The notes: generated by a model from the sequence alone, not told the origin. Positions 36,753-56,832 are shown, counted from the stretch's first letter. The stretch: 64,000 nt of DNA from Oscillospiraceae bacterium (GCA_009780345.1 WRAG01000001.1:7267-71266); one strand, 5' to 3'. Program-made: numbers and translations.

Positions 36753-36781
36753 TTGACATATGGGGTTAGATGTTGTATACT
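36753..36781 (+). promoter_or_regulatory. Strong sigma-70-type promoter, likely the S10 operon promoter
   Basis: TTGACA (36753-36758), 17-nt spacer, TATACT (36776-36781), about 430 nt upstream of rpsJ. Confidence 0.65.
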
Positions 36782-37057
36782 ATTCAAGCACGTCTAAGAC
36801 AGACGATGATTTCAGAGATGGCAAACACTTGATATTCAAGGGGTTTGGGAACTTTGGAGGAGATTGTCCGGTTTCAAAAAAGCGGGCGTTTGCGTGCGAG
36901 GTAGTATCGAAAATTCAGATTTTATTGAAAAGTGGGCAGTTTTTAAGGTTGTCTATGTTTCGAAGTCTGTTTTGCCCGAAATCGTTATGCCGTAAGGCTT
37001 AGCGGTGCTTCGGGAAATTTTATAGTAATATAAAGTACGCCCGGCACAGTGTGAAAT

Positions 37058-37180
37058 TTTGCGTGAAATTACGCAATATTCCGTCGAAACATCGCCCACA
37101 GAAAATCCTCAACGTATAACCCATACGTCTGCGGTTTTCCGGGACTCGTTTCGACGAAATATTACGCAATTTGACGCAAA
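37058..37180 (+). repeat. Family A repeat (A1 core), forward, in the rpsJ leader
   Basis: TTTGCGTGAAATTACGCAAT...AATCCTCAACGTATAACCCATACGTCTGCGG...TTACGCAATTTGACGCAAA. Confidence 0.9.
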
Positions 37181-37210
37181 ATTAAGAATTTTATTAAGGA
37201 GGGCTATTTT

Positions 37211-37519
37211 ATGGCGGCAGAAAAAATTAGAATCAGACTTAAATCTTACGATCACAATTTGGTTGATCAATCGGCGGCGAAGATCGTGGATACCGCAACG
37301 AGAACGGGGGCGAAAATTTCGGGTCCTATTCCGTTGCCGACGAAGAAGGAGATTATCACTATCCTTCGCGCGGTGCATAAGTACAAAGACAGCCGTGAGC
37401 AGTTTGAACTGAGAACGCACAAACGTTTGATTGATGTTTTGGGTCCGACGGCGAAAACGATTGACGCGCTGAAGAACTTGGATTTACCGGCGGGCGTTGA
37501 TATTGAAATTAAGATATAA
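37211..37519 (+). CDS. rpsJ: 30S ribosomal protein S10
   Basis: [18 protein letters not shown]...GPIPLPT...[14 protein letters not shown]-like sequence. Confidence 0.98.
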
Positions 37520-37521
37520 AA

Positions 37522-37644
37522 TTTGCGTGAAATCACGCAATCTTTCGTCGAAACTGCAATGACGAAAAATCCTCAACGTATCACATATACGCCTGCGGTT
37601 TTTCGCATCTTGTTTCAACGAAATCTCACGCAATTTGACGCAAA
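37522..37644 (+). repeat. Family A repeat (A1 core), forward
   Basis: Starts 2 nt after the rpsJ TAA. Central hairpin CGTAT-CACAT-ATACG. Ends CACGCAATTTGACGCAAA. Confidence 0.9.
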
Positions 37645-37716
37645 TTTGGGTATATGTGTTGCGTGAAGGTCATGTCGGTGGAATGTGCCGACCAATAACC
37701 GAAAGGAGAAGTATTA

Positions 37717-38349
37717 ATGAAGAAAGCGATTTTAGGTAAGAAAATCGGAATGACGCAGATATTTGGCGAAAACGGCGTGGTAATTCCGATCACTGTTGTT
37801 GAAGCGGGGCCGTGTCCTATCGTTCAAAAGAAAGATATGGAAAAAGACGGTTACGAAAGCGTGCAAATGGCTTTTATGGACAAAAAAGAAAAGCATACCA
37901 CTAAGCCGTTGCAAGGACATTACAAAAAAGCGGGTGTCGGGCTTAAAAGATTTCTAAAAGAATTTAAACTTGACAATTACGCGGATTTGAATGTCGGAGA
38001 CGAAATTAAAGTTGATATATTCGAGGACGGAGAAGTTATTGACGTTACCGGAACCAGCAAAGGTCACGGATTCCAGGGTACGGTTAAGCGTCACGGAACG
38101 CACAGAGGTCCGATGAGTCACGGTTCGCATTATCACAGAGGACCGGGTTCAATGGGCGGATGTTCTACTCCGTCGAGAGTATTTAAAGGTAAAAGGTTGC
38201 CCGGACACATGGGTGTGGATACCGTTACCATTCAAAATTTAGAACTTGTTAAAGTTGATACGGAACGGAACTTGCTTCTTATTAAAGGCGCGGTTCCGGG
38301 ACCTAAGGGCGGACTGGTTGTTGTTCGGAACGCGGTTAAAGGAGGATAA
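37717..38349 (+). CDS. rplC: 50S ribosomal protein L3
   Basis: [12 protein letters not shown]...[11 protein letters not shown]. Confidence 0.98.
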
Positions 38350-38595
38350 TTTGCGTGAAATCACGCAATCTTTCGCAGAAACTGCGAGGACAAAAAGTCC
38401 TCGACGTATAACTCATACGCCTGTGGCTTTTATATGGAGGGCTCCCAAAAAACGAGAGCCATTGCTCGAAATTTTTTGGGAAAGAGGAGCCGCCGCACGC
38501 AAGGCGAAGCTTTTGCCACGATTTTTGTGGCAAAACGAGCAACGAGTGCGAGTGGGGACGATGTTTCGACGAAATCTCACGTAATTTGACGCAAA
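38350..38595 (+). repeat. Family A repeat, composite (A1 core with a nested ~120-bp module E)
   Basis: Starts immediately after the rplC TAA. The insert GGAGGGCTCCCAAAAAACGAG...TTTTTTGGGAAAGAGGAGCC... (from 38437) is related to modules at 45697, 48040, 52305 and 56175. Ends TCACGTAATTTGACGCAAA. Confidence 0.88.
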
Positions 38596-38620
38596 TTTAG
38601 TTTGGAAGGGAGTAATAAAA

Positions 38621-39244
38621 ATGCCTAAAGTACCATTAATGGATAAGACAGGTAAGAACATTGGAGATATTGAGCTTAGCGAAAACGTGTTCGGAGTTGA
38701 CGTTAACACTGATGTAATGCACGAAGTTGTTGTAAACTATCTTGCGAATCAGCGTCAAGGAACACAAAGCACGAAAACGCGCGCGGAAGTTCGAGGCGGC
38801 GGTAAGAAGCCGTGGAGACAAAAAGGTACGGGTCGTGCTCGTCACGGTAGTACTCGTTCTCCGATATGGACAGGCGGTGGCGTAACGTTTGCGCCGAAAC
38901 CGAGAGATTACAGTTATACGGTTAACAAAAAAGTGAAGCGTCTTGCTTTGAAATCGGCGTTGTCAAGTAAAGTTTTGGCTGAGAACGTTATCGTGCTTGA
39001 CGGATTCAAGATGGACGAGATTAAGACGAAAGAAGTTGCTACGGTTTTGAAAAACATGGGAATCGTGGGGAAAGCGTTGATCGTTCTTCCCGAAAACGAC
39101 CAAACAGTCGTGCGCAGCGCGAGAAATATTCGCGGCGTTGACGCTACATTCGTTGGACAGATCAATACTTATGAAGTTTTGAACCATACGAAATGTATCA
39201 TTCTAAAAGACGCGGTGGCTAAGCTTGAGGAGGTGTACGCATAA
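38621..39244 (+). CDS. rplD: 50S ribosomal protein L4
   Basis: [30 protein letters not shown]. Confidence 0.98.
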
Positions 39245-39531
39245 TGAAAACGGCTTATGACATTATTAGAAAGCCTATCATTACCGAGCAGAGTATGGAA
39301 GGCGTTCAAGACAAGAAGTACACGTTCGAAGTTGCGGTTGGCGCAAACAAGATTGAAATTAAAAAGGCGATTGAAGAAATATTTAAGGTGAAAGTTGACA
39401 AAGTTACCACCATGAATATGAAAGGCAAGCCGAAAAGAATGGGAGTTCACGCAGGATTTCGTCCGGATTGGAAGAAAGCAATGGTGAAGTTGACTCCTGA
39501 TAGTAAATCTATCGAATTATTTGAGGGTTAA
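39244..39531 (+). CDS. rplW: 50S ribosomal protein L23
   Basis: [12 protein letters not shown]...[17 protein letters not shown]. Start overlaps the rplD stop. Confidence 0.97.
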
Positions 39532-39557
39532 TATCGAGTTGAAGGGAGAAAGAGCTA

Positions 39558-40391
39558 ATGGCTATTAAAAAGTATAGACCTATTACGCCTTCGTTGCGTC
39601 AGATGACATGTTCGGCTTTTGCTGAGATTGATAAAGTAAAGCCGGAGAAGTCGCTTCTTAGAAAACTTAAGAAGAATGCAGGACGAAACGCGCATGGTAA
39701 AATTACGGTTCGTCACCGCGGAGGCGGCGCGAAACGTAAGTACAGAATTATTGATTTTAAACGTAACAAAGATGGAATGAAAGCAACTGTTTTATCAATC
39801 GAGTATGATCCGAACAGAACGTCTAACATTGCGCTTTTGGAATATCCGGATGGTGAAAGAACATACATCATCGCGCCGGTTGGACTTAAAAAAGGTCATA
39901 TCATTGAGTCGGGCGTGCAAGCCGACATCTTGCCGGGTAACGCGAAAGAGCTTAAAGACATTCCGGTTGGTACGATGATTTACAACATCGAGTTGAAGCC
40001 CGGTAAAGGCGGACAACTTGTTAGATCGGCGGGGAACACGGCGCAGCTTATGGCTCTTGAGGGACTTTACGCGCAAATCAGACTTCCGTCGGGCGAGATG
40101 AGATTGGTTCGAAACAACTGCCGCGCGACAATCGGGCAGGTTGGAAACACCGATCACGAGAACATAAACATCGGTAAAGCGGGACGTAAACGACATATGG
40201 GATGGCGTCCTACCGTTCGTGGTGTTGTTATGAATCCGTGTGATCACCCTCACGGTGGTGGTGAAGGTAAGTCGCCTATCGGACGGCCGAGCCCTGTTAC
40301 TCCTTGGGGTAAGCCGGCGTTGGGATATAAAACGCGGAATAAGAAGAAGCATTCTAGCAAGTATATAGTTAAAGGCAGAAATTCTCGATAA
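39558..40391 (+). CDS. rplB: 50S ribosomal protein L2
   Basis: [14 protein letters not shown]...[18 protein letters not shown]. Confidence 0.98.
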
Positions 40392-40403
40392 TTATTTTCG
40401 TCA

Positions 40404-40792
40404 AATTGGCACATTTTGAATTTTTGGGAGAGTTGTCGAAAACTTGTTTTCGCTAACAGCTCCCCTGCAAGGCTTTCCAAAGAGCATGAGTCGTTTGTTG
40501 ACGAAGTGCGATTTGCTGAAAGCTACTGCCGCCCACTTGCGTACTTTGTGTACGCGGCGTGGCAGGGCGCGCAAAAGCGGCGCGGCTTTAAATGAGACTT
40601 GGCTTTGCTGATTTTTGCAAAGTCATAGCCGAATTATGCAGGGGCGTAACATTTTGTAAAACAAAATGCACAGCCATCTGCCAAAATTCAAACTGCACGC
40701 AATTTGACGAAAATATGAGATTTGGTTTCACGCAATTTGACGCAAATTTTAGGAATTTGACAAAAATGTGGAATTTGGGTTTATGCAATTGA
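40404..40792 (+). repeat. Family B repeat, large composite (B core with nested modules F and G, plus extra A-type right-end half-sites)
   Basis: AATTGGCACATTTTGAATTTTT, then module F (GGGAGAGTTGTCGAAAAC...), CCCACTTGCGTACTTTGTGTACGCGGCGTGG, then module G (TTTAAATGAGACTTGGC...), AAAATTCAAACTGCACGCAATTTGACGAAAA, TCACGCAATTTGACGCAAA. Confidence 0.88.
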
Positions 40793-40829
40793 GAAGTATA
40801 GAAGTATAATGGAAAGAGAGGTAAACTTT

Positions 40830-41111
40830 ATGGGACGTAGTGTTAAAAAAGGACCTTTTATTGAAGAAAGTTTGATGAAAAAGATAGTTGCGCAAAATGC
40901 GGCGGGGACGAAGAACGTTATCAAGTCTTGGTCGCGCGCGTCTACTATATTCCCTGAAATGGTTGGACATACAATCGCGATTCATGACGGACGTAAGCAT
41001 GTTCCTGTTTATGTGAGCGAGGATATGGTTGGACATAAACTTGGTGAGTTCGCGCCGACCAGAACATATCGTGGTCATTCGGGATCGAAAACGTCAAACA
41101 CCGGTAAATAA
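40830..41111 (+). CDS. rpsS: 30S ribosomal protein S19
   Basis: [15 protein letters not shown]...[15 protein letters not shown]. Start at ATG 40830 after GAGAGG. Confidence 0.97.
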
Positions 41112-41115
41112 CCGG

Positions 41116-41238
41116 TTTGCGTGAAATCACGCAATCTTTCGCCGAAACTTCACCTGCGAAAAATCCTCAACGTATAACCCATACGCCTGCGGTTTTTCGA
41201 GACTTGTTTCGCCGAAATCTTACGCAATTTGACGCAAA
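41116..41238 (+). repeat. Family A repeat (A1 core), forward, near-consensus copy
   Basis: TTTGCGTGAAATCACGCAATCTTTCGCCGAAAC...AATCCTCAACGTATAACCCATACGCCTGCGG...GTTTCGCCGAAATCTTACGCAATTTGACGCAAA. Confidence 0.92.
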
Positions 41239-41289
41239 CCGTGTTTGTGTCTTGAATAAAATGTATTTTACAAAATAGAGGTGAAAGTT

Positions 41290-41628
41290 ATGGAAGCTAA
41301 GGCAAAAGTTACACATATTCGTATTGCGCCGCGAAAAGTTCGAATTGTTATCGACCTTATTCGCAACAAGCCGGTCGGGCACGCCATTGCGATATTGAAA
41401 AATACGCCGAAAGTGGCAAGTCCTGTTGTGGAAAAGCTTTTGAATTCCGCAATCGCTAACGCGCAAAACAATCATAACATGAATGTAGACAACTTGTACA
41501 TTTCACAAGTTTATGCAGATCAAGGGCCGACCTTGAAGCGGATTATTCCGCGGGCGAAAGGTATGGCTAACAGAATCCAAAAGAAGACCAGCCATATTAC
41601 GTTGGTGCTTGCGGAAAGGGAGGTTTAA
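41290..41628 (+). CDS. rplV: 50S ribosomal protein L22
   Basis: [25 protein letters not shown]. Confidence 0.97.
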
Positions 41629-41631
41629 AGC

Positions 41632-42429
41632 ATGGGACAAAAAGTGCATCCTCACGGACTTAGAGTCGGAGTTATCAAAGGCTGGGACTCACGCTGGATT
41701 GCGTCGGACAGCGACTTTGGCGATAATATCGTGGAAGATTACAATATTCGCAAAATGCTGAAGAAAAAGCTTTACGCTGCCGGTGTTGCTAAGATTGAAA
41801 TTGAAAAAGCGGCGGGGAAAATCCGTTTGTTTATTCATGCGGCGAAACCGGGTATCATTATCGGTAAAGGCGGAACCGAGATTGAAAAAATCAAGCAATC
41901 GGTTGAAAAGCTTACTGGCAAAAGCGTTGCTTTGAACATCGTTGATGTTAAAGTTGCGGATATGAACGCGCAACTTGTTGCGGAAAATATCGCGGCGCAG
42001 CTTGAAAAACGTATTTCGTTCCGTAAAGCTATGAAGCAATCTATGGGACGTACCATGAAAATGGGCGCGAGAGGGATTAAAACGCAAGTTTCAGGACGTT
42101 TGGGCGGCGCGGAAATCGCGAGATCTGAGCATTATCACGAAGGAACTATTCCGCTTCAAACTTTGCGAGCGGATATTGACTATGGATTCGCGGAAGCGGA
42201 TACAACTTACGGAAAAATCGGCGTTAAAGTTTGGATTTACAAAGGCGAAATATTGCCGGAGGGCAAAAGAGGCGTGGATTTGAATAAACCTATCCCGCAA
42301 CCGACCGCTCCGCCAAGACCGCCGAGACCTGCTCGTCCTGCGGGAGATCGTCCTGCACGACCTGCCGGAAACAGACCTGCGGGCAATCGTCCGCCGAGAA
42401 AACCCTCCACGGAAGGAGGAAACAGATAA
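41632..42429 (+). CDS. rpsC: 30S ribosomal protein S3 (with Pro/Arg-rich C-terminal tail)
   Basis: [13 protein letters not shown]... KH domain. Tail is [46 protein letters not shown]. Confidence 0.97.
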
Positions 42430-43049
42430 TGTTATTACCAAAAAGAGTGAAACGCAGAAGAGTTATGCGTGGCAAAATGAAAGGCAAAGCGCAACGCGGC
42501 ACGAAAATCGCTTACGGTGATTTCGGTCTTGTGGCGACTACGCCGGCTTGGGTTAGAAGTAACCAAATAGAAGCGGCGCGTATCGCGATGACTCGTTATA
42601 TCAAGCGTGGCGGTAAAGTTTGGATTAAAATTTTCCCGGATAAGCCGGTTACCGAAAAGCCTGCTGAAACCCGTATGGGTAGCGGTAAAGGTTCGCCTGA
42701 GTATTGGGTAGCGGTTGTTAAACCCGGACGCGTGCTTTTTGAGATTTCAGGGGTGCCGGAAGACACTGCTCGCGAAGCTATGAGACGCGGAATGCACAAA
42801 CTTCCGCTTAAATGTAAGTTTGTCACCCGCGCCGAGCAAGAGAAAGAAGCGGAACTTGAAAAAGCGGCGGAGGCGGCAAAAGCGGCTCCTAAAAAGCCTG
42901 CCGAAACTAAAGCTAAAAAAGCGGCGGCTCCTAAAAAAGCCGCGAAAAAAGAAGAAGCGGTTGAAGTTGCCGAAATTAAAGTTGATGTTGCCGAAGAGGT
43001 TGTTGAAAAAGCGGCTGACGTTGGCGGTAAGGAGGGCGGCGAAGAATGA
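42429..43049 (+). CDS. rplP: 50S ribosomal protein L16 (with ~65-aa Lys/Ala/Glu-rich C-terminal extension)
   Basis: [19 protein letters not shown]...[24 protein letters not shown]. At 206 aa it is longer than the usual ~140-145 aa. Confidence 0.95.
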
Positions 43050-43252
43050 AAATAAGAGATATTCGTGATATGACATCAAATGAGTTGACCGGAAAATTGA
43101 AAGAGTTAAAAGAAGAAATGTTTAATCTTCGGTTCCAAAACGCGACGAATCAATTGGAAAATCCGATGAGAATTGCTGTCGTTAGGAAAGATATTGCGAA
43201 GGTTATGACTGTACTAAAAGAGCAGGAGCTCGGACTAAGGGTGGAGGGATAA
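43046..43252 (+). CDS. rpmC: 50S ribosomal protein L29
   Basis: [32 protein letters not shown] overlap with rplP. Confidence 0.97.
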
Positions 43253-43256
43253 TATT

Positions 43257-43523
43257 ATGACTGAAACTATGCAAAGAAATTATCGTAAAACCCGTACGGG
43301 CAAGGTTGTAAGCGATAAAATGGACAAAACCATCGTTGTTGCTATTGAAAACCGGGTAAAGCACGGACTTTACGGTAAAATCGTAAAAAGAACATACAAA
43401 CTTAAAGCCCATGACGAGCAAAATACTTGCGGCGTAGGTGATACGGTTAAAGTTATGGAATGCCGTCCGTTATCTCGGGATAAAAGATGGCGTTTGGTTG
43501 AAGTAGTAGAAAAAGCGAAGTAA
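43257..43523 (+). CDS. rpsQ: 30S ribosomal protein S17
   Basis: [22 protein letters not shown]...[29 protein letters not shown]. Confidence 0.97.
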
Positions 43524-43524
43524 A

Positions 43525-43645
43525 CTTGTAAATTTTCCGCTATTTTTTCCGAAACTGCAAGACAGAAAATGCTCAACGTATAACCCATACGCCTGTGCTT
43601 TTCCGCTTTTGTTTCGAAAATCTAGCAAAAAATTTACTGCGTTTA
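43525..43645 (+). repeat. Family A repeat (A1 core), decayed ends
   Basis: Core AATGCTCAACGTATAACCCATACGCCTGTGC is retained. The ends have degenerated (CTTGTAAATTTTCCGCTA / TAGCAAAAAATTTACTGCG). Confidence 0.7.
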
Positions 43646-43674
43646 TTCATTGAAGGATAGGAGGCTGGAACGTT

Positions 43675-44043
43675 ATGGTACAGCAACAGTCAATTTTAAA
43701 GATTGCCGATAATAGCGGAGCGAAAGAAATTATGTGTATCCGTGTTTTGGGCGGTTCGGTTCGACGATATGGCAATGTTGGCGACGTTATTGTTGCGTCG
43801 GTTAAGAAAGCCGCGCCGGGCGGAGGAGTTAAAAAAGGTGAAGTTATCAGAGCCGTTATCGTGCGCACCGTTAAAGGTGTTAAGCGAAAAGATGGTTCGG
43901 TTATTAAATTTGACGAAAACGCGGCGGTTATTATCAGAGAAGATAAAAACCCGAGAGGTACGCGTATATTCGGACCTGTGGCACGTGAGTTAAGAGACAA
44001 GGAGTATATGAAAATTATATCCTTGGCGCCTGAGGTTTTATAA
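43675..44043 (+). CDS. rplN: 50S ribosomal protein L14
   Basis: [28 protein letters not shown]. Confidence 0.98.
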
Positions 44044-44045
44044 AA

Positions 44046-44244
44046 TTTTGGCACATTTCGGATTTTTCGCCCACTTGCGTACTTTATGTACGCGGCGTGG
44101 CAGGGCACACAAAAGCGGTGTGGCTTTAAATGAGACTTGACTTTGTTGGATTTTGCAAAGTCATAGCCGAATTATGCAGGGGCGTAACATTTTGTAAAAC
44201 AAAATGCACAGCCATCTGCCAAAATCCAAACTGTACTCAAAATT
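44046..44244 (+). repeat. Family B repeat with nested module G
   Basis: TTTTGGCACATTTCGGATTTTTCGCCCACTTGCGTACTTTATGTACGCGGCGTGG, then module G (near-identical to 40583-40682), then AAAATCCAAACTGTACTCAAAAT. Confidence 0.88.
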
Positions 44245-44279
44245 TTATAAAACAAATTAGTGGTTTAGGAGGAAAAAAC

Positions 44280-44609
44280 ATGGCTATAGCAAAGATGCAT
44301 GTTAAAAGCGGGGACAATGTTATTGTTCTCTCGGGCAAGGATAAAGGCAAAAAAGGCAAAGTTCTTGCGGTTATGCCGGAAAAACGCATGGTTATTGTTG
44401 AAGGCGTTAGTGTGGCAAGCAAGCACAAAAAGCCTCGCAAACAAGGTGAGGTTGGCGGAATCATTAAACAAGAAACGCCGATTTACGCTTGCAAAGTTAT
44501 GAATATTTGTTCTAAATGCTCTTCGCCGGCGAGAGTCGGACGCAAAATCCTGAACGACGGAGAACACGTTCGATATTGTAAGAAGTGCGGAGAAACTTTC
44601 AGTAAGTAA
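44280..44609 (+). CDS. rplX: 50S ribosomal protein L24
   Basis: MHVKSGDNVIVLSGKDKGKKGKVL KOW motif. Start at ATG 44280 after AGGAGG. The ORF-track extension lies in the repeat. Confidence 0.96.
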   Translation: MAIAKMHVKSGDNVIVLSGKDKGKKGKVLAVMPEKRMVIVEGVSVASKHKKPRKQGEVGGIIKQETPIYACKVMNICSKCSSPARVGRKILNDGEHVRYCKKCGETFSK

Positions 44610-44628
44610 GACGCATCTGAAATTTTAG

Positions 44629-44729
44629 TTTGTGTCAAATTGCGTGAGATTTCGGCGAAAACGCAAGGAGCGTGTATACAGATACCCGACGAAGCGGTTT
44701 CGGCGGAAGGTCGCGTAATTTCACGCAAA
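44629..44729 (-). repeat. Family A repeat (A2 core), inverted
   Basis: TTTGTGTCAAATTGCGTGAGAT...GGAGCGTGTATACAGATACCCGAC...CGCGTAATTTCACGCAAA. Confidence 0.88.
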
Positions 44730-44756
44730 CCCTATAATAAAGAGGTGAATTGAACA

Positions 44757-45293
44757 ATGAGATTGCAAGAGAAATATAAAAGCGAAGTTGCGCCGGCGAT
44801 AATGAAAAAATTTGGATATAAAAGCGTTATGCAAATTCCGAAGCTTGAAAAAGTCGTTATCAACATGGGCGTAGGGGACGCGAAAGATAATGCTAAAGCA
44901 ATTGAAAGCGCCGTTGCGGACTTGGCGGCAATTACCGGACAAAAGCCTGTTATCACTAGGGCGAAAAAGTCGGTTGCGACGTTTAAAGTTCGTGAAGGCA
45001 TGAACATTGGTTGCAAAGTTACTTTGCGCGGAGAGATGATGTACGATTTTGTGCAACGGCTGTTTAACGCTGCTTTGCCGCGCGTGCGTGACTTCCGCGG
45101 AATCAGCGCGGACGCTTTTGACGGACGCGGTAACTATTCTATGGGAATTAAAGAGCAGTTGATTTTCCCGGAGATATCTTATGATAAGATTGATAAAATC
45201 AGAGGTATGGATATTATATTCGTTACCACAGCTAATACGGACGAAGAGGCGAAAGAGTTGTTAACTCTTATGGGAGCACCGTTTAAGAGCTAA
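44757..45293 (+). CDS. rplE: 50S ribosomal protein L5
   Basis: [40 protein letters not shown]. Confidence 0.98.
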
Positions 45294-45302
45294 TTTATTT
45301 TT

Positions 45303-47994: not shown

Positions 47995-47995
47995 G

Positions 47996-48228: not shown

Positions 48229-48284
48229 ACTGTCAGCATAATGCTAATGCTAATTTAGTTTGGCATTGAAAGGAAGAGTTAAAA

Positions 48285-48561: not shown

Positions 48562-48582
48562 GCAAGATTAGGAGAGATTGAT

Positions 48583-49017
48583 ATGAACTTAAACGAACTA
48601 TCTCCGAGTATTGGTCGTAAGAAAAAATTCCGTGTTGGTCGCGGTCACGCGAGCGGAAACGGAAAGACCTGCGGAAAAGGACATAAAGGACAAAATTCAA
48701 GATCGGGCGGCGGAGTTCGTCCCGGATTTGAGGGCGGACAAATGCCGCTTCACAGAAGGCTTCCGAAACGCGGATTTACCAATATATTCGCGAAAGAATA
48801 TGTGGAAGTGAACGTTTCTGACCTTAACAGATTTGAGGGTAACGAAGTTACCGCCGAAGCTTTGAAAGCGGCGGGAATTATCTCGAAAATTAAGGATGGA
48901 ATCGTTATCTTAGGGCGCGGCGAGCTTGAAAAAGGCTTGACTGTTAAAGCGAAAAGATTCAGTAAATCAGCAAGCGAAAAAATAACAAAAGCCGGCGGCA
49001 AAACAGAAATAGTTTAG
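48583..49017 (+). CDS. rplO: 50S ribosomal protein L15
   Basis: [37 protein letters not shown]. Start at ATG 48583 after AGGAGAG. Confidence 0.97.
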
Positions 49018-49102
49018 TTTAATCGAGTGCAGTTTGGTGTTTGGACTGACCGACGTGTACATTGGGTACATGAGGGAGGGAAAACGCCAAAATGTGCCGA
49101 GT
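49018..49102 (-). repeat. Family B repeat, short form, inverted
   Basis: TTTAATCGAGTGCAGTTTGGTGTTTGGACTGACCGACGTGTACATTGGGTACATGAGGGAGGGAAAACGCCAAAATGTGCCGAG. Confidence 0.8.
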
Positions 49103-49128
49103 AAACTAAACCGCTTAGGAGGATTACT

Positions 49129-50436
49129 ATGTTTTCTACTATTAGAAACGCGTGGGCTATACCTGATTTAAGAAAAAAACTTCTTTATACAATCGGACTG
49201 TTGATTGTATTTAGATTGGGAAGTTATATACCTGTTCCCGGGTTTGATTATAACCTTTTGGGAAGCTGGGTAGGAGAAGGAACTTTGCTAAGCCTTTTGG
49301 ACACGATGTCCGGGGGCGCGCTTAATAACGCGACCATATTCGCTATGGGAATTGCGCCGTACATTAACGCATCTATTATTATGCAACTTTTGACTGTTGC
49401 GGTTCCCGCGTTTGAAAGAATGCAGCGTGAGGGCGAAGAAGGCAGAAAGAAGCTTGCGCAATATCAAAGATACGGAACGGTTTTACTTGCAATTGTTCAA
49501 GCGTTCGGGCTTTACACTTTGCTTAGCCGTCCGGGATTTGCGGGCGATGTAAGCCTTGTTGCTAACCCGGGTTGGCAGTCTATGCTTATAATAGTTATCT
49601 CGCTTACCGCAGGAACCGCGTTTCTTATGTGGTTGGGTGAGCAGATTACCGAAAAAGGAATTGGGAACGGGATATCCTTGATAATCTTCGCAGGTATTGT
49701 TTCGCAAGTTCCGAACATGTTTATGGGCACGGTTCATAACTTGAGAGATGGAAATCTTTCTTATCCGCTACTTATAGGTATTTTGGCGGTCGGACTTGCG
49801 GTTATCGGGCTTATCGTTATGATGAATGAGGCGGAACGCCGAATTCCGGTGCAATACGCGAAGCGTGTTGTCGGTCGGAAGATGTACGGCGGTCAAAGCA
49901 CGCATATTCCGATTAAAGTTGCGAGCGCAGGAGTTATCCCAATCATCTTCGCGATGTCTATCATCATGTTCCCGGCAACTATTGCGGCTATGTTCGGCGT
50001 GCCGATTGACGGAACGGGAACAGGATTTTGGCCAATGGTTCTTAGTTGGTTAACGCCGCAACATTGGGCGTATGCGGTCTTGGTATTCTTGCTTATTATA
50101 TTCTTTACCTACTTCTACACGGCGATACAGTTTAATCCGGTTGAGATGTCTAATAACATGAAGAAAAACGGCGGATTTATTCCGGGAATCAGACCGGGGC
50201 GTCCGACGGCGGAGTACATTCAACGAGTTCTTGGAAAAATTACCATGGCGGGCGCGATATTTATTGCATTTATCGCGGTATTCCCGATTGTAATGGGATT
50301 AGGATTCATTGACGGAATGGGTGCGTTCGCTATCGGTGGCGCGGGACTTTTGATCGTTGTCGGTGTTGCGCTTGAAACAGTAAGACAGCTTGAATCTCAA
50401 ATGTTGATGAGGCATTATAAGGGCTTTCTTGAATAG
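49129..50436 (+). CDS. secY: Preprotein translocase subunit SecY
   Basis: 435 aa, 10-TM SecY pattern. Contains GIAPYINASIIMQLL. Confidence 0.98.
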   Translation: MFSTIRNAWAIPDLRKKLLYTIGLLIVFRLGSYIPVPGFDYNLLGSWVGEGTLLSLLDTMSGGALNNATIFAMGIAPYINASIIMQLLTVAVPAFERMQREGEEGRKKLAQYQRYGTVLLAIVQAFGLYTLLSRPGFAGDVSLVANPGWQSMLIIVISLTAGTAFLMWLGEQITEKGIGNGISLIIFAGIVSQVPNMFMGTVHNLRDGNLSYPLLIGILAVGLAVIGLIVMMNEAERRIPVQYAKRVVGRKMYGGQSTHIPIKVASAGVIPIIFAMSIIMFPATIAAMFGVPIDGTGTGFWPMVLSWLTPQHWAYAVLVFLLIIFFTYFYTAIQFNPVEMSNNMKKNGGFIPGIRPGRPTAEYIQRVLGKITMAGAIFIAFIAVFPIVMGLGFIDGMGAFAIGGAGLLIVVGVALETVRQLESQMLMRHYKGFLE

Positions 50437-50444
50437 ATTGTAAA

Positions 50445-50567
50445 TTTGCGTGAAATCACGCAATCTTTTGTCGAAATTACGTGGTCGGAAAATCCTCAAC
50501 GTATAACCCATACGCCTGCGGTTTTCCGCCACTTATTTCAACAAAATCTCACGCGATTTGACGCAAA
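50445..50567 (+). repeat. Family A repeat (A1 core), forward
   Basis: TTTGCGTGAAATCACGCAAT...AATCCTCAACGTATAACCCATACGCCTGCGG...TCACGCGATTTGACGCAAA. Confidence 0.9.
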
Positions 50568-50593
50568 TTTTGAATAAAAGGTGGTGGGGACTT

Positions 50594-51238
50594 GTGAAGC
50601 TAGTTATTTTAGGCGCTCCGGGTGCGGGCAAAGGCACGCAGGCGGAACAACTTGAGGCTTATCTAAGAGTTCCCACCATTTCAACAGGAATGATGGTAAG
50701 AAAAGCGATTCGAGAGCAAACCGAGTTCGGCAAGCTCTCGAAAGCATATATTGATGACGGGCAGCTTGTTCCCGACGACGCGATGATCAAAGTTCTTGAC
50801 GAACGGTTGCGGAAAAAGGATTGCCGGCATGGATTTATTCTTGACGGATATCCTCGAACCGTACATCAAGCGAAAGATTTGGAAAATAAGGGAATAATTA
50901 TCGATAAAGTTTTATCGGTTGAGGTTCCTGACGAGCTGATTGTCGAACGGTTATCAGGGCGGCTTGAATGTGGGAATTGCGGCGCGTCTTACCACGTTAA
51001 GTATCGCGCGCCGATGGAAGAGGGAATTTGCGACGTTTGCGACAGCCCGCTTATTCGCCGGGACGATGACATTCCCGAGATTATCCTAAAAAGATTGGCC
51101 GCTTACCACGAAAAAACGGCGCCGCTTAAAGAATATTATGCAAAACAAGGCAAACTTTGCGTCGCTGAGGGGCAAGGAGATATCAAAGACACCATTAATG
51201 AGGTATTTAAGGTGCTTGAACTGGGCGTGACGGATTAA
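50594..51238 (+). CDS. adk: Adenylate kinase (zinc-lid type)
   Basis: (V/M)KLVILGAPGAGKGTQ. Lid is CGNCGASYH...CDVCDS. GTG 50594 was chosen because the ORF-track N-terminus lies in the repeat. The start is uncertain by a few codons. Confidence 0.93.
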   Translation: MKLVILGAPGAGKGTQAEQLEAYLRVPTISTGMMVRKAIREQTEFGKLSKAYIDDGQLVPDDAMIKVLDERLRKKDCRHGFILDGYPRTVHQAKDLENKGIIIDKVLSVEVPDELIVERLSGRLECGNCGASYHVKYRAPMEEGICDVCDSPLIRRDDDIPEIILKRLAAYHEKTAPLKEYYAKQGKLCVAEGQGDIKDTINEVFKVLELGVTD

Positions 51239-52011
51239 TGGTAACGATTAAATCAAAACTTGAAATTGAGAAAATGCGGCGTGCAGGCAAGATTGTTTAT
51301 GAGACGTTAAGCCTTATCAAACAGCACACTAAGCCGGGAGTTACCACATTGGAGCTTGACGCGCTTGCCGAGAAGTATATCAGAAAATGCGGCGCGATTC
51401 CGAGCTTTAAAGGGTACAACGGATTTCCGAAAAGTGTTTGTATTAGCGTGAACGAAGAAGTTATTCACGGAATTCCGTCTAAGCGAGTGCTTTTGGACGG
51501 AGATATCATTTCGGTGGATGTTGGCGCTTGCGTTGACGGATACCACGGCGACGCGGCGAGGACGTTTGCGGTTGGCAATATCAGCCGCGAGGCGAAAAAG
51601 TTGATTTCGGTGACGAGGCAAAGCTTTTTCGATGCTCTTCTGTTTATGAAAGAGGGACATCGGGTGTCAGACATATCTGCGGCGGTGCAAAATTGCGTCG
51701 AAGAAAACGGATTTTCGGTTGTTCGCGCGTATTGCGGTCACGGAATCGGGAAAGACTTGCATGAAGCGCCCGAAGTTCCGAACTATGTAAGAGATGACGG
51801 TTCTAATCCGGCTAAAAATGTTTCACGTGGAACACGGCTGTATGCCGGAATGACGCTGGCGGTTGAGCCTATGGTAAACATGGGGACATCGGAGATATAC
51901 GTTAAGCCGGACAAGTGGACGGTTGTGACGAAAGACGGAAAGTTGTCGGCGCATTATGAGAATACTGTGTTGATTACCAAAAATGAGCCGATAGTGCTGA
52001 CGCGTGGGTAG
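51238..52011 (+). CDS. map: Type I methionine aminopeptidase
   Basis: Sequence includes VCISVNEEVIHGIP, VDGYHGDAARTF, GHGIG and HYENTVLIT. Confidence 0.96.
   Translation: MVTIKSKLEIEKMRRAGKIVYETLSLIKQHTKPGVTTLELDALAEKYIRKCGAIPSFKGYNGFPKSVCISVNEEVIHGIPSKRVLLDGDIISVDVGACVDGYHGDAARTFAVGNISREAKKLISVTRQSFFDALLFMKEGHRVSDISAAVQNCVEENGFSVVRAYCGHGIGKDLHEAPEVPNYVRDDGSNPAKNVSRGTRLYAGMTLAVEPMVNMGTSEIYVKPDKWTVVTKDGKLSAHYENTVLITKNEPIVLTRG
51819..51834. promoter_or_regulatory. parS: parS site inside the map coding sequence
   Basis: TGTTTCACGTGGAACA is the reverse complement of the B. subtilis consensus TGTTCCACGTGAAACA. It encodes NVSRGT in frame. Confidence 0.75.
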
Positions 52012-52022
52012 AGAGGTAAGTT

Positions 52023-52316
52023 ATGGAAGATATAACCTTAAAATTAGGAGATATTGTTTTTTCCAAGGCGGGGCGGGATATGAATCGCCATTACATTGTG
52101 ATGAGGATTGCTGAGCCTTATATTTGGACTTGTGACGGAGATTTACACAAGGTTGAGAAATTCAAGAAAAAGAAGATCAAACATACCAAATATATGGGTT
52201 GTCAATCTGAATATATAAAAAACAAGCTGACCGGCGGTGAAAAGGTTACAAACAGCGAGATTCGCCGAGCTATTTCGGAGTTTGTTGAGAGTGAACAAGA
52301 GGGAGAGGGCTCCTGA
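52023..52316 (+). CDS. KOW-domain RNA-binding protein (map-infA linked)
   Basis: LGDIVFSKAGRDMNRHYIVMRI KOW-like motif. The last codons and stop lie in repeat module E. Confidence 0.8.
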   Translation: MEDITLKLGDIVFSKAGRDMNRHYIVMRIAEPYIWTCDGDLHKVEKFKKKKIKHTKYMGCQSEYIKNKLTGGEKVTNSEIRRAISEFVESEQEGEGS

Positions 52317-52470
52317 AAAATGAGGACCTAAGTCCGAAATTTTTTGGGAAAAAGGAGCAACCCCGGAGCGCATGAGCTTTTGGGGTAGGTAATGATGGTT
52401 GGCATTTATGCCAACAATTACATTGCATCATTTCAACACGATTTGTGTGTTCTTTTTGCCACAAAACGAA
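52305..52470. repeat. Module E-related structured element
   Basis: GAGGGCTCCTGAAAAATGAGG...GAAATTTTTTGGGAAAAAGGAGCAACC... parallels 38437-38490. It is followed by hairpin GGTTGGCATTTATGCCAACAA. Confidence 0.65.
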
Positions 52471-52492
52471 TTAAGTGAAGGAGGTTGTGACG

Positions 52493-52711
52493 ATGCCGAA
52501 AGAAGATATGTTGGAAATAGAAGGTACGGTGCTGGAGGCGTTGCCTAACGCCACGTTTCAGGTAGAGCTTGAGAACGGGCATCAAATTTTGGCGCATATA
52601 TCCGGAAAGCTTCGTATGCACTATATTCGAATACTTCCGGGAGACAAAGTTACGGTGGAAATTTCGCCGTATGACCTAACAAAAGGTAGAATTACATGGA
52701 GAGGAAAGTAG
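52493..52711 (+). CDS. infA: Translation initiation factor IF-1
   Basis: [53 protein letters not shown]. Confidence 0.98.
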
Positions 52712-52726
52712 CGTTCGAGGGAATAA

Positions 52727-52845
52727 AATTTGCAACGAATAAATTTGTAAAAGAATGCGTGCATTGCGGTGAAAATCGTGAGGAAGCGTGTATAAATATA
52801 CCCGACTGAGGGATTTTCGCCGCAAGGTGCGTATTCTCTTACAAA
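52727..52845 (-). repeat. Family A repeat (A2 core), inverted, degenerate ends
   Basis: Core GAGGAAGCGTGTATAAATATACCCGACTGAGGG is flanked by GCGGTGAAAATC / GATTTTCGCCGC arms. Confidence 0.65.
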
Positions 52846-52868
52846 TAGTAATATAGGAGGAAAATTTA

Positions 52869-52982
52869 ATGAAAGTACAACCATCAGTAAAACCAATTTG
52901 CGAGAAATGCAAAATCATAAAACGAAAAGGCCGGGTTATGGTTATTTGTGAGAATCCGAAGCATAAGCAGAAACAAGGTTAG
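52869..52982 (+). CDS. rpmJ: 50S ribosomal protein L36
   Basis: Hand translation: [46 protein letters not shown]. Below the ORF-track cutoff. Confidence 0.97.
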
Positions 52983-53093
52983 TTATCAAAATATCTATCG
53001 GGCTGAATTCGGGCGTGGTTTAGCACAATCGATTATTTTTGTGCGGAAATTATGCGCTGTAATCCGATAGATGTGTGATATATAAAATTTAGA

Positions 53094-53122
53094 TTTGCGT
53101 CAAATTGTATAATTTCATGCAA
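53094..53122 (-). repeat. Minimal family A unit (both ends, no core), inverted
   Basis: TTTGCGTCAAATTGTATAATTTCATGCAAA is the mirror of the 27711 minimal unit. Confidence 0.65.
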
Positions 53123-53145
53123 ATGTTATGGAAGGAGGAGAATTT

Positions 53146-53514
53146 ATGGCACGTATCGCCGGTGTTGACTTACCGAAAGAAAAACGAGTGGAAATTGGTC
53201 TTACTTATATTTTTGGAATCGGGCTTTCCACTTCAAAAAAGCTTTTGGCGACAACAAGCATAAGCCCTGACGTTCGAGTTAAAGATTTGACCGAGGAAGA
53301 AGTTTCTAAACTTCGTGAAGCGATTGACCGCGACTGCAAAGTTGAGGGTGATCTAAGACGGGATGTTGCGCTTGATATAAAGCGGCTTATTGAGATTAAT
53401 TGCTATCGCGGAATGAGGCACAGAAAGAACTTGCCGGTTCGCGGGCAAAGGTCTAAAACCAACGCGCGAACGCGTAAGGGGCCTAAGCGTACAGTAGCAA
53501 ACAAGAAGAAATAG
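53146..53514 (+). CDS. rpsM: 30S ribosomal protein S13
   Basis: [26 protein letters not shown]. Confidence 0.98.
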
Positions 53515-53526
53515 TATTTGATAATT

Positions 53527-53626
53527 TTTGGCACATTTTGAATTTTTCGCCCACTTGCGTACCTTTGTACGCGGCGTGGCACAGTGCGCAAAAGCAGCGC
53601 AGCTCCAAAATTCAAACTGCACTCAA
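53527..53626 (+). repeat. Family B repeat, short form, forward
   Basis: TTTTGGCACATTTTGAATTTTTCGCCCACTTGCGTACCTTTGTACGCGGCGTGGCACAGTGCGCAAAAGCAGCGCAGCTCCAAAATTCAAACTGCACTCAAAA. Confidence 0.88.
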
Positions 53627-53684
53627 AATTTATCAAATATAGCAGAAGTTAATTGATTTTATTCGAATTGAGAGGTGAGCAAAA

Positions 53685-54083
53685 ATGCCGAAAGCAGTAG
53701 CTAAAAGAGGTACAAGGCGAAGAAGAGAGAAGAAGAATATCGAGCGTGGCGCGGCGCATATCAAGTCCACGTTTAATAATACAATCGTTACATTAACCGA
53801 TGTATCAGGCAATGCGTTGTCGTGGGCGAGCGCGGGCGGAATGGGATTCCGTGGCTCGAAGAAAAGCACACCATTTGCGGCGCAAATGGCGGCGGAAACA
53901 GCGGCGAAAGCGGCTATGGAGCATGGGCTAAAAACCGTTGAGGTTTATGTTAAAGGTCCCGGCGCGGGACGCGAGGCGGCAATTCGCGCGCTTCAAGGCG
54001 CAGGGTTGGAAGTTAATATGATTAAAGACGTTACGCCGATACCGCATAATGGGTGTAGGCCGCCGAAGAGACGTAGAGTTTAA
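53685..54083 (+). CDS. rpsK: 30S ribosomal protein S11
   Basis: [30 protein letters not shown]. Confidence 0.98.
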
Positions 54084-54086
54084 CAA

Positions 54087-54294
54087 TTTTCGCGAAATTG
54101 GCACATTTTGAATTTTTTGGCGAGTTGTCGAAAACGAGTTTTCGCTAACAACTTCCCTGCAAGGCTTTCTAAAGAGTACGAGTCGTTTGTTGACGAAGTG
54201 CGATTTGCTGAAAGCTACTGCCGCCCTCTTGCGTACTTTTGTACGCGGCGTGGCATAGCGGGCAAAAAATCCAAACTGCGCTCAATTTCACAAA
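54087..54294 (+). repeat. Family B repeat with nested module F
   Basis: TTTCGCGAAATTGGCACATTTTGAATTTTTT, then module F (GGCGAGTTGTCGAAAACGAG..., colinear with 40426-40527), CCCTCTTGCGTACTTTTGTACGCGGCGTGG, AAAAAATCCAAACTGCGCTCAATTTCAC. Confidence 0.88.
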
Positions 54295-54342
54295 AATCAT
54301 GTTTGTGAATTTTAAAATTTTTCGTATTGATAAGATTTTAAA

Positions 54343-54464
54343 TTTGCGTCAAATTGCGTGAGATTTCGTTGAAACAAGAGTCGGAAAACCGCAGGCGTAC
54401 ATCAAGTACGTTGAGGATTTTGCGGCTCGCAGGTTCGGCGAAAGGTTGCGTGATTTCACGCAAA
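54343..54464 (-). repeat. Family A repeat (A1 core), inverted
   Basis: TTTGCGTCAAATTGCGTGAGAT...CCGCAGGCGTACATCAAGTACGTTGAGGATT...TTGCGTGATTTCACGCAAA. Confidence 0.9.
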
Positions 54465-54486
54465 TGCTGAGAAAGGAGAGATAACT

Positions 54487-55110
54487 ATGGCTAGATATAC
54501 AGGTTCGGTATGTCGCTTGTGTCGTCGCGAGGGCGAGAAGTTGTTCCTAAAAGGCGATAGATGTTATACCGGAAAATGTGGCGTTGTTCGTCGCGCATAT
54601 GCGCCGGGGCAACACGGACAAGGACGTAAAAAATTGTCGCAGCATGGAGTTCAGCTTCGTGAAAAGCAAAAAACTAAACGCTATTACGGCGTATTAGAGG
54701 GGCAATTTAGAAAATATTTTGGAATGGCTGTTAAAAAACAAGGAATTACAGGTGAAAACTTGCTTCAAATTTTGGAAAGCCGGTTGGATAATGTAATTTA
54801 CAGAGTAGGGCTTGCAAGTTCGCGCGCTGAGGCGAGGCAGCTTGTGAATCACGGACATTTTACCATTAACGGTAAAAAGGTGAACATACCGTCTTACTTG
54901 GTGAAAGCGGGAGAAGTTATATCTGTTCGTGAAAAGTCGCGTGGCAGTAGCCGTATCAAAGATTTGATGGACGGTCGCGGTCGGGCGGTTCCGAAATGGC
55001 TTGATATGGACAGAAATACTATGACTGCAAGAGTTGTGGCATTGGCAAGTCGTGAGGATATTGATCTTCCGATACAAGAACACTTGATAGTTGAGTTGTA
55101 TTCTAAGTAG
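54487..55110 (+). CDS. rpsD: 30S ribosomal protein S4
   Basis: [27 protein letters not shown]4 domain present. Confidence 0.98.
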
Positions 55111-55178
55111 TATATAGCCCGATGGTGATATATACTGGATTATAGCAGTGTATTATAATTAAAAAAGGGGGCTAGGTT

Positions 55179-56129
55179 TTGATTGAGATAGAAAGACCGA
55201 GAGTAGAACGGGTGAATTCCGATTCGGATAACGTGCATGGCGTATTTGTGGTCGAGCCGTTAGAGCGTGGATACGGAATTACCCTTGGGAACTCACTTCG
55301 CAGGATACTTTTGTCGTCACTTCCCGGTGTTGCGGTTACTTCCATCAAGATTGAGGGAGTTTTGCACGAATTTTCTACCATTCCGGGAGTGAAGGAAGAT
55401 GTTACCGAGATTGTGCTTAATATCAAAGGGTTGCTTGCGAAACTTCATTCGGAAGGTATGAAAACTCTTTACATTGACGCGCAAGGCGAGGGAGCGATTA
55501 CCGCCGGAGATATTAAAAAGGACGCGGATGTTGAAATCCTAAATCCTGAGCATCACATCGCGACATTGACGTCGGACGCGCGGCTTTACATGGAAATTAC
55601 CATAGACAAAGGGCGCGGATACGTTGCGAGCGAAACGAATAAGCAGATGATGCAACCTGTGATTGGCGTTATTCCGACCGACAGTATTTACACGCCGGTA
55701 AGGAAAGTGAATTACACGGTTGAAAATACGCGCGTTGGAAACGTTACCGACTTTGATAAGTTGACAATTGATGTTTGGACAGACGGAACAATTGATCCGT
55801 CGGACGCGATAAGTCTTGGCGCGAAAATTATGAACGAGCACCTTAACTTGTTTATCGACCTTTCGGAAAATGCGAAAAACGCTGAAATTATGGTCGAAAA
55901 GGAAGAGAACAAGAAAGAAAAAGTGCTTGAAACCACAATCGAAGAGCTTGATTTGTCGGTTCGTTCGTATAATTGCTTGAAGCGCGCGGGAATTAATACG
56001 GTTCAAGATTTGACGACCAGATCGGAAAACGACATGATGAAAGTTCGGAATCTTGGGCGAAAATCGCTTGAGGAAGTTATCCATAAGTTGTTGGGGATGG
56101 GACTTTCGCTGGCGAAAGACGAAGAGTAG
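55179..56129 (+). CDS. rpoA: DNA-directed RNA polymerase subunit alpha
   Basis: [18 protein letters not shown] and C-terminal domain [19 protein letters not shown] start. Confidence 0.97.
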
Positions 56130-56358
56130 TTGCGCCAAATTACGCACATTTTGGATTTTTCCGCCCCCTTGTGTACAAGGGCTCCCGCAAAGTCGGTTTG
56201 TGACTTTGTGGGAAAAAGGAGCAACAACGGAACATGCGAGGTTTTCGGACGGGTTTTGTCCGAAAACGAGCAAAGTGGAATTTGTTGTGACGACGGCGGT
56301 GCATGGCGCCCAAAAGCGGCGCGGCGTTAAAATCCAAACTGCACGCAATTTGACACAA
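56130..56358 (+). repeat. Long family B variant framed by family A-type ends
   Basis: Starts directly after the rpoA TAG with TTGCGCCAAATTACGCACATTTTGGATTTTT. Contains ...GTACAAGGGCTCCCGCAAAGTCGG...GGGAAAAAGGAGCAAC... and ends AAAATCCAAACTGCACGCAATTTGACACAA. Colinear with 45650-45881. Confidence 0.88.
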
Positions 56359-56388
56359 CTACAAGAATAACAGTGATATAAAATTTTG

Positions 56389-56434
56389 TCAAAAATACAA
56401 AATGCTTTGCATTTTTGTGGTGTGACCAATTTTG
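56389..56434. repeat. Conserved block D upstream of rplQ
   Basis: Hairpin CAAAAATACAAA-ATGC-TTTGCATTTTTG. The 35 nt AAATGCTTTGCATTTTTGTGGTGTGACCAATTTTG (56400-56434) are identical to 46506-46540. Confidence 0.75.
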
Positions 56435-56463
56435 GCGAAATTACTGAGATAGGAGGATTAACA

Positions 56464-56805
56464 ATGGCTCATCAAAGAAAGCTTGGCAAAACTACCGACC
56501 AAAGATTGGCGATGTTGCGTCAGCTTACCACGTCGGTTTTAGAGCATGGAAGAATTGAGACTACCACAACGCGCGCGAAAGAAGTTCGCAAACTTGTGGA
56601 TAAGATGATTACGCTTGGAAAGACTAACACGCTTCATACCAGGCGGCAAGCACTTTCGTGGATGACACAGGAAGATACTGTTACGAAACTGTTTGAAGAA
56701 ATCGCGCCGAAGTACGCTGAGCGTAACGGCGGATATACGAGAATCATCAAAATCGGACCTCGACGCGGAGACGCGGCGGAGATTTCGGTATTGGAATTGG
56801 TGTAA
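56464..56805 (+). CDS. rplQ: 50S ribosomal protein L17
   Basis: [34 protein letters not shown]. Confidence 0.98.
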
Positions 56806-56808
56806 ATT

Positions 56809-56832
56809 AAAAGAGCCGCAAGGCTCTTTTTT
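56809..56832 (+). terminator. Intrinsic terminator ending the alpha operon
   Basis: AAAAGAGCC-GCAA-GGCTCTTTTTTG. Confidence 0.85.

Follow-up and report, generated by a model that had tools for sequence, protein, structure and literature searches.

The sequences between the genes of the S10-spc-alpha ribosomal-protein cluster in a 64,000-nt stretch of DNA from an Oscillospiraceae bacterium (GCA_009780345.1 WRAG01000001.1:7267-71266; the whole stretch is hereafter called the window) probably represent lineage-specific, non-autonomous, hairpin-forming interspersed repeats that resemble REPINs and miniature inverted-repeat transposable elements (MITEs). They are an extreme case of a known class of bacterial repeat rather than a novel type of system. 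Few parts of bacterial DNA are as compact, conserved and highly expressed as the S10-spc-alpha cluster. In the window it runs from rpsJ (37211) to rplQ (56805), entirely on the + strand, and translations together with Pfam labels on the identical genes of contigs L001 and L102 gave the canonical order that an earlier note on this DNA had claimed, namely rpsJ-rplC-rplD-rplW-rplB-rpsS-rplV-rpsC-rplP-rpmC-rpsQ-rplN-rplX-rplE-rpsN-rpsH-rplF-rplR-rpsE-rpmD-rplO-secY-adk-map-KOW-infA-rpmJ-rpsM-rpsK-rpsD-rpoA-rplQ. Nine start codons were shifted to conserved N-termini before the junctions were measured. Twenty of the 31 junctions are 111-438 bp long and add up to 4384 bp of the 19595 bp of the cluster (22%), while the remaining 11 span -4 to 68 bp. 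The set of 20 long junctions, their share of about 4.4 kb or a fifth of the cluster and the 11 tight or overlapping junctions therefore agree with the earlier note. Among 80 relatives from GTDB, the maximum number of junctions of at least 100 bp per locus was 8.

The repeats form hairpins and belong to two related families, of which A measures 123 or 103 nt and B about 100-125 nt; further modules are nested in their loops. These families and sub-modules occur in both orientations, as had been proposed. Families A and B have common ends of the TTTGYGTSAAA...TTTSACRCAAA type. Within family A, A1 is 123 nt long with sharp ends (TTTGCGTGAAATYACGCAAT ... TCACGCAATTTGACGCAAA), and A2 is a 103-nt subfamily that has the ends of A1 and a different core. 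Family A folds as a single long hairpin; its z-scores range from -5.8 to -9.6, and those of the elements overall, against shuffles, from -4.4 to -9.6. Family A has a perfect and highly conserved 7+4+7 palindrome at its left end (TTGCGTG-AAAT-CACGCAA) and none at its right end. In family B, the arms GGCACATTTTGRATTTTT / AAAATYCAAACTGCRCTCAA are combined with a pair of small internal hairpins and with an outer stem that is often similar to the ends of family A. In the longer junctions, B or A1 copies hold modules C, D, E and F in their loops, so that a long closing stem surrounds a multibranch interior in these nested composites. Small open reading frames (ORFs) in modules D and E were considered as coding sequences and rejected, since they vary from copy to copy, with changes at the amino-acid level. 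When the window was compared with itself by BLAST, 6.3 kb was repeated, approximately 3.6 kb of it within the 20 long junctions, and 18-19 of the 20 contain sequence that recurs elsewhere in the window or in related contigs. The exceptions are rpmD/rplO (112 bp), which has a unique set of hairpins, and rpmJ/rpsM, where a conserved native leader makes up most of the sequence and is joined by a 30-nt mini-palindrome of family-A ends. Beyond the 20 junctions, a further site is found within the ~430-nt leader of rpsJ, where an A1 copy occupies 37058-37180 (+; 136 bits with the covariance model).

The stems of these elements are kept paired by compensatory change. In 17 copies of family A, 95.8% of cells were paired and both sides had changed in 14 of 31 pairs, compared with 5.1 ± 1.2 in shuffles and at most 5 in slid controls. 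The outer stems of family B (14 copies) are copy-specific in sequence, yet each matches its own partner arm; the energy between own arms was -7.2 kcal/mol, whereas that between arms of different copies was -1.6 kcal/mol (0/5000 permutations). The reverse complement of the canonical orientation folds better than the canonical orientation itself in all 25 A copies (-52.5 vs -33.2 kcal/mol) and in 12 of 15 B copies. This difference between strands is due to G-U pairs, of which the family A consensus has seven on the better-folding strand and none on the other. The orientation of the elements relative to transcription was 16:8, which is not significant (p = 0.15), and the idea that orientation is selected in the mRNA was dropped on this ground.

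At the insertion ends, no consistent target-site duplication was found among 23 family-A-type regex matches, of which two had a direct flank repeat of 2 nt each. The flanks extend the palindrome, with at least 3 complementary nt in 8 of the 23 copies compared with 1.8 expected (0/5000 shuffles). Taken together, the conserved ends, the covarying stems, the lack of a target-site duplication and the favoured strand point to a single-stranded intermediate that is recognised by its shape. New copies may thus arise through a structure-dependent mechanism acting on single-stranded nucleic acid, with the enzyme supplied in trans, like the HUH/RAYT-type transposase with REPINs. REPINs and RAYT transposases have been described as shape-recognised single-stranded systems (PMC3116915). 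PATE elements derived from IS200/IS605, which insert 3' of a fixed tetra- or pentanucleotide target and have subterminal hairpins but no terminal inverted repeat, were also considered and rejected, because the left flanks of our elements have no conserved tetranucleotide and the whole element is itself an inverted repeat.

Alignment of filled with empty sites placed the inserted DNA between the stop codon and the ancestral Shine-Dalgarno (SD) sequence, in accordance with the previous description of junctions filled from one to the other. The elements begin 0-8 nt past the stop codon, and all 20 downstream genes keep a strong SD. Overlap with a gene end was seen in three cases, at the stop codon of rplN, at the final codons of the KOW gene and at the stop codon of an Asp23-family gene (13274-13276). 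For the latter two, the gene ends lie within the repeat copies (52305-52316, containing the last KOW codons and stop, and 13268-13276, containing the Asp23-family stop), indicating that the insertions rewrote these gene ends. With spacers of 15-40 nt, placement between stop codon and SD would be the expected residue of purifying selection. Intrinsic terminators were not enriched in the elements, whose ends are AU-rich stems without T tracts; 26 terminator-like sites compare with 25.4 ± 5.1 expected, and 39 promoter-like sites with 31.6 ± 5.4 expected. The possibility that each gene has its own promoter and terminator was rejected, as neither kind of site is enriched. As such, read-through is the simplest expectation; the polymerase probably passes through the elements, and every cistron would be translated from an SD of its own.

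The ribosomal cluster may be so full because it offers 31 short co-directional junctions, in which copies would persist only within the few nucleotides that separate the stop codon upstream from the SD downstream. Polymerase would pass through the elements, which carry no terminator tail, and the downstream genes would start translation independently, each from its own strong SD. Effects on the processing or stability of the mRNA, if any, would then be a by-product or a later co-option.

The comparison of orthologous clusters that the earlier note had called for revealed both empty and filled junctions. Five sister contigs, in which SecY is approximately 75% identical, contain members of the same families, though each in a different subset of junctions, and many of their sites are empty. 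At rpsE/rpmD, where the window has a B copy with nested module D (47996-48240, +), L085 has a B copy and the four others (L083, L084, L086 and L087) have 16 nt. At rpmD/rplO, the hairpins of the window (48468-48579, +) have no second copy in the sequences searched, while L083 has 5 nt and L086 has a B-like copy. The secY/adk junction holds A1 in the window (50445-50567, +) and B in L085, and is empty in L083 and L086 (28-31 nt). An A2-like element at infA/rpmJ (52756-52845, -) corresponds to 1 nt in L083. The rpsK/rpsD junction of the window is 403 nt long, with a B copy holding module C (54084-54300, +) and an inverted A1 (54343-54464, -), whereas that of L083 and L085 is 18-29 nt. Similarly, rpoA/rplQ is 334 nt in the window and 11 nt in L085; here a B copy with A-type ends and module D (56130-56370) is followed by module F (56393-56465), the whole spanning 56130-56465 (+).

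Some insertions are shared between lineages. A simple B at rpsM/rpsK (53517-53640, +) is shared with L083, an inverted B at rplO/secY (49018-49118, -) with L085, and an A2 at bacA/panD with L089. The rplO/secY site is empty (30-38 nt) in L083, L084, L086 and L087. The orthologous copies are 81-91% identical, in comparison with 56-79% identity at third codon positions of flanking genes. The B copies at rpsM/rpsK are identical at 105 of 123 positions (85%) compared with 59-60% at third positions, those at rplO/secY at 81 of 100 (81%) compared with 56-59%, and the A2 at 62685 matches that of L089 at 94 of 103 positions compared with 388 of 510 third codon positions (p = 3e-4). Such slow divergence could stem from selection for transposability, gene conversion, re-insertion or a function in the host. 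We also observed an unrelated palindromic repeat (ACAATTGACAATTGACAATGCACAATGG...) in L085, at 5964-6140 (rpsM/rpsK) and 530-606 (rpmD/rplO), so the clade carries further repeat families.

The repeats are confined to a small clade of termite-gut Oscillospiraceae. By SecY, an identical protein from an Oscillospiraceae metagenome-assembled genome in NCBI is followed by relatives that are 72-76% identical. All related contigs come from the JGI samples Ga0123355 and Ga0136643 and from ENA assemblies ERZ272572xx, where Ga0123355 is the Emb289 P1 sample from the gut of the humus-feeding termite Embiratermes neotenicus (PMC7024585). None of the junction sequences was found by BLAST in 80 ribosomal-protein loci of GTDB species representatives (at most 77% mean amino-acid identity), and the covariance model of family A had no match in the 35 of these loci that were searched with it. 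The family A end, used as an exact pattern against 241 million metagenome records, was recovered in 14 contigs, only from Ga0123355 and Ga0136643. Elements A and B had no BLAST match in plasmids, and pattern scans of viral contigs were empty. Rfam at gathering thresholds gave no match over the whole window, and a permissive Rfam search over the cluster gave chance-level or native matches only, the one relevant being Alpha_RBS. The repeats thus matched no named element in Rfam or in the plasmid and viral collections, in agreement with the earlier note. To our knowledge, the consensus sequences of BOX/RUP/SPRITE, Correia and ERIC bear no resemblance to families A and B.

Copies of the same families are also present outside the ribosomal cluster. 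In the window they lie at holB/PSP1, around Asp23-ogg-fba, at thyA/folA and at bacA/panD, and in termite-gut contigs at ilvN/ilvC, around ssb and next to rnhB; the non-ribosomal sites include divergent and convergent gene pairs. Elements occupy 18 of 31 junctions in the cluster and about 9 of 36 elsewhere in the window, a difference of approximately 2.3-fold (Fisher p = 0.012). The ribosomal cluster is thus special only moderately; the high load that had been emphasised there was confirmed, whereas the repeats are not specific to it. Module D also occurs in frame within the coding sequence of Tex (18161-20461), where a 120-nt copy occupies 19570-19689 on the - strand. Alignment of Tex with the structure 2oce showed about 36-40 extra residues at this site, between the central and YqgF domains, and the copy resembles an in-frame insertion of the RPE type.

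In behaviour, the closest known elements are REPINs/BIMEs and, in a Firmicute host, the pneumococcal BOX/RUP/SPRITE repeats. REPINs and REP/BIME elements of Pseudomonas and Enterobacteria (PMC3116915, PMC5581495) are likewise symmetric, about 100-120 nt long and folded into long hairpins, with conserved ends and a variable interior held paired by compensatory changes. They are also extragenic and often lie between genes of one operon, they show no target-site duplication, they are vertically inherited and lineage-restricted, and their family consensus outlasts neutral sequence by far. Unlike REPINs, our elements have other modules heavily nested in their loops and a right end that is not palindromic, and their host belongs to the Clostridia, whereas the REP-associated RAYT groups 2 and 3 are enterobacterial or pseudomonad.

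Several observations weigh against mobile, REPIN-like repeats. In REPIN systems the RAYT, an HUH Y1 transposase, is encoded by a single-copy gene that the repeats typically flank. A transposase was sought here in the 64-kb window and in about 16 kb of extra flank of the same genome, and none of any kind was found; Pfam searches of 40 window ORFs and 10 ORFs beside copies in termite-gut contigs returned housekeeping genes only, with no RAYT/HUH transposase in the sequence searched, and a crude HUH/Y motif screen of termite-gut sequence gave no candidates. The mobilising enzyme is therefore purely inferred. The conserved GT[A/G]G tetranucleotide that stands ahead of the short imperfect palindrome in each REP has no GTAG-like counterpart here, and REPIN-RAYT systems have been described mainly in Proteobacteria (PMC5581495). 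In addition, the 16:8 orientation bias is not significant, read-through is deduced solely from the lack of terminator features, and the slow divergence and stem covariation could come from selection on RNA function at the level of the host or from gene conversion. Considering that neither a RAYT nor the REP tetranucleotide was found, we propose that the elements work in a REPIN-like manner, not that they are members of the REPINs.

Like our elements, BOX/RUP/SPRITE are modular small repeats with extensive secondary structure in a Firmicute host, and they sometimes change gene ends as well; they are co-transcribed with their neighbours, nearly species-restricted and judged to be parasitic, slow transposers (PMC3049150). 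However, BOX is a linear boxA-boxB(n)-boxC array, unlike the nested hairpins here, RUP has IS630-type ends and TA duplications, and none of the three has been reported to saturate the ribosomal supercluster. The Correia elements of Neisseria and the ERIC/IRU elements of Yersinia and Enterobacteria are also hairpin repeats of 100-150 nt inserted within operons. Once transcribed into mRNA, they can be substrates of RNase III or RNase E and can thereby shift the stability of the flanking cistrons. Both are proteobacterial, unlike the present repeats, which have no Rfam match, and Correia elements have TA target duplications and fixed terminal inverted repeats (TIRs). The RPEs of Rickettsia share the in-frame coding insertion seen with module D in Tex, but they are mostly intragenic, whereas this holds for 1 of about 40 copies here. 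Mycobacterial MIRUs occupy intercistronic gaps of operons beside stop and start codons. In contrast to our elements, which contain no conserved ORF, they are tandem minisatellites with coupled mini-ORFs. The present repeats are therefore striking in degree, and in kind they are a new family of a familiar class.

A different and rather doubtful view is that the hairpins punctuate the super-operon at 20 cistron pairs, as tRNAs punctuate mitochondrial transcripts, and/or that they were spread by an undescribed single-strand-specific enzyme of Clostridia; this would explain the G-U asymmetry, the stem covariation and the slower-than-synonymous divergence. Adoption by the host, which we likewise regard as unlikely, would make the elements RNase III or RNase Y sites, or 5'/3' stabilisers, in the 20-kb polycistronic RNA, uncoupling the stability and translation of neighbouring cistrons and being retained by selection. 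Stems preserved by compensatory change, orthologous copies that diverge more slowly than synonymous sites, positions that adjoin stop codons and leave each SD free, the lack of terminator tails and the ~2.3-fold enrichment per junction in the cluster are all in line with such a role. However, most of these junctions have no element in the sister contigs, and the same junction may hold different families. The same elements also lie in unrelated operons, between divergent or convergent genes and within the Tex coding sequence, and the mRNA usually has the weaker-folding strand of family A.

It is also improbable that the elements are ordinary MITEs, that is, deletion derivatives of insertion sequences of the DDE type whose TIRs are cut and pasted by the transposase of the parent. 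While the conserved inverted ends (TTTGCGTG...GACGCAAA), the small size of 100-125 nt and the occupancy differing between lineages would suit MITEs, the insertions lack a consistent target-site duplication, and the stems covary instead of forming a fixed TIR, the outer stems of family B above all. Moreover, a double-stranded mechanism does not predict the systematic G-U asymmetry between strands, and no full-length parent with these ends was found, all 14 metagenome matches being short elements. The perfect and highly conserved palindrome at the left end of family A could suggest arrays of binding sites on double-stranded DNA, where a nucleoid-associated protein or a dimeric regulator recognises TTGCGTGAAATCACGCAA, but this seems very improbable, because the long-range stem covariation and the strand asymmetry point to pairing of single strands and not to a duplex motif, the ends of family B differ in sequence and no candidate binding protein was identified.

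Collapsed or chimeric repeats from assembly or binning can practically be dismissed, even though the source is a metagenome-assembled genome and L001 breaks within the rpsK/rpsD repeat region, since three independent assemblies agree exactly over 15 kb and 16 junctions, a further JGI sample (L103) has the same bacA/panD copy as the window and diverged copies lie in junctions of the same genes in sister lineages. Specifically, the ENA contig L001, from a different assembly, showed 0 mismatches and 0 gaps against window 39129-53998, and the Logan contig L002 was 100% identical to window 48055-50514. Based on this base-for-base agreement with two other assemblies, the junctions are not artefacts, a cause that the earlier note had wished to see checked. 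From window 53999 onward (L001 14871-15114) the identity ends, with 15 mismatches in the final 85 nt of rpsK, and L001 continues as a diverged haplotype with A2 after rpsK where the window has the B+C composite. The assembler thus appears to have jumped to a related strain at the repeat.

For the REPIN-like repeats proposed here, the repeat load of 22% implies that even the S10-spc-alpha cluster absorbs a massive invasion if the SD is spared and no terminator is carried. Twenty translationally coupled or tight junctions have been turned into structured spacers of 111-438 nt, which provides a natural experiment on translational coupling and ribosomal-protein balance. The repeats also extend REPIN-like, structure-selected elements to a lineage of uncultured termite-gut Clostridia, and such repeats break metagenome assemblies inside the marker-gene clusters on which phylogenomics and binning rely.

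The remaining sites of the cluster were assigned as follows. Upstream of the rpsJ leader, a promoter-like 40-mer (36740-36779, +) has a TTGACA box at 36753, the position from which the earlier note had started the cluster. This 40-mer is 78% identical to another at 58257-58296, and both have the TTGACA box and an A/T-rich upstream part; judged by sequence, the two are likely strong promoters of a common type. The A1 copy at rpsJ/rplC (37522-37644, +) begins 2 nt past the stop codon and scores 149 bits, and that at rplC/rplD (38350-38595, +) abuts the stop codon and is split by an insert of ~125 nt related to module D (38437-38560). The composite B at rplB/rpsS (40392-40753, +) contains an outer stem, module C (40425-40525), the B core and module E (40578-40702), and also has a stray A-type end at 40726-40753. 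An A1 copy lies at rpsS/rplV (41116-41238, +), and a degenerate A1 at rpsQ/rplN (43527-43638, +) scores 73 bits. At rplN/rplX, a B copy with nested module E (44036-44266, +) is 93% identical to 40530-40702, and its outer stem takes in the rplN stop. The short-core A2 at rplX/rplE (44629-44729, -) is 101 nt long and has its better-folding strand in the mRNA. A simple B at rplE/rpsN (45294-45416, +) abuts the stop codon, and a B copy with A-type outer ends and nested module D occupies rpsN/rpsH (45650-45891, +). Other repeats fill rpsH/rplF (46382-46570, unstranded), where one hairpin element is 72% identical to a copy from the termite-gut contig L096 and module F (46500-46570) recurs at 56393-56465. 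The KOW/infA junction contains a module D fragment (52305-52384) and a further hairpin (52305-52492 in all, +). At rpmJ/rpsM, the native rpsM leader (52990-53090, +) is not a repeat and is 74-78% identical in L083 and L085, and the 30-nt mini-palindrome (53094-53123, -) is made of family-A ends alone (TTTGCGTCAAATTG...CATGCAAA). A sub-threshold Rfam match to Alpha_RBS at 53091-53178 (27.3 bits compared with a gathering score of 38, E = 0.009) suggests that the native segment is probably the S4-binding leader of the alpha operon.

In the surroundings of the cluster (window 31432-37210), recF lies about 1 kb and dnaN 5 kb upstream, and fusA/tuf are absent upstream of rpsJ; parA/parB and serS are found at 20-24 kb. 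These genes indicate that the window is probably close to the replication origin. The GC skew of the window did not place the origin with confidence. A separate class of composite intergenic repeats, 400-650 bp long and 65-80% alike, is located upstream of several genes (window 176-641, 11926-12388, 15262-15768 and 24006-24486; L102 8498-9105; L105 17335-17994). Finally, three ribosomal proteins of the cluster have unusual C-terminal extensions: S3 (rpsC, 41632-42429) ends in a Pro/Arg-rich repeat, L16 (rplP, 42429-43049) has an Ala/Lys/Glu-rich tail of about 65 residues, and L24 (rplX, 44280-44609) ends in a ribbon-like segment with four cysteines.

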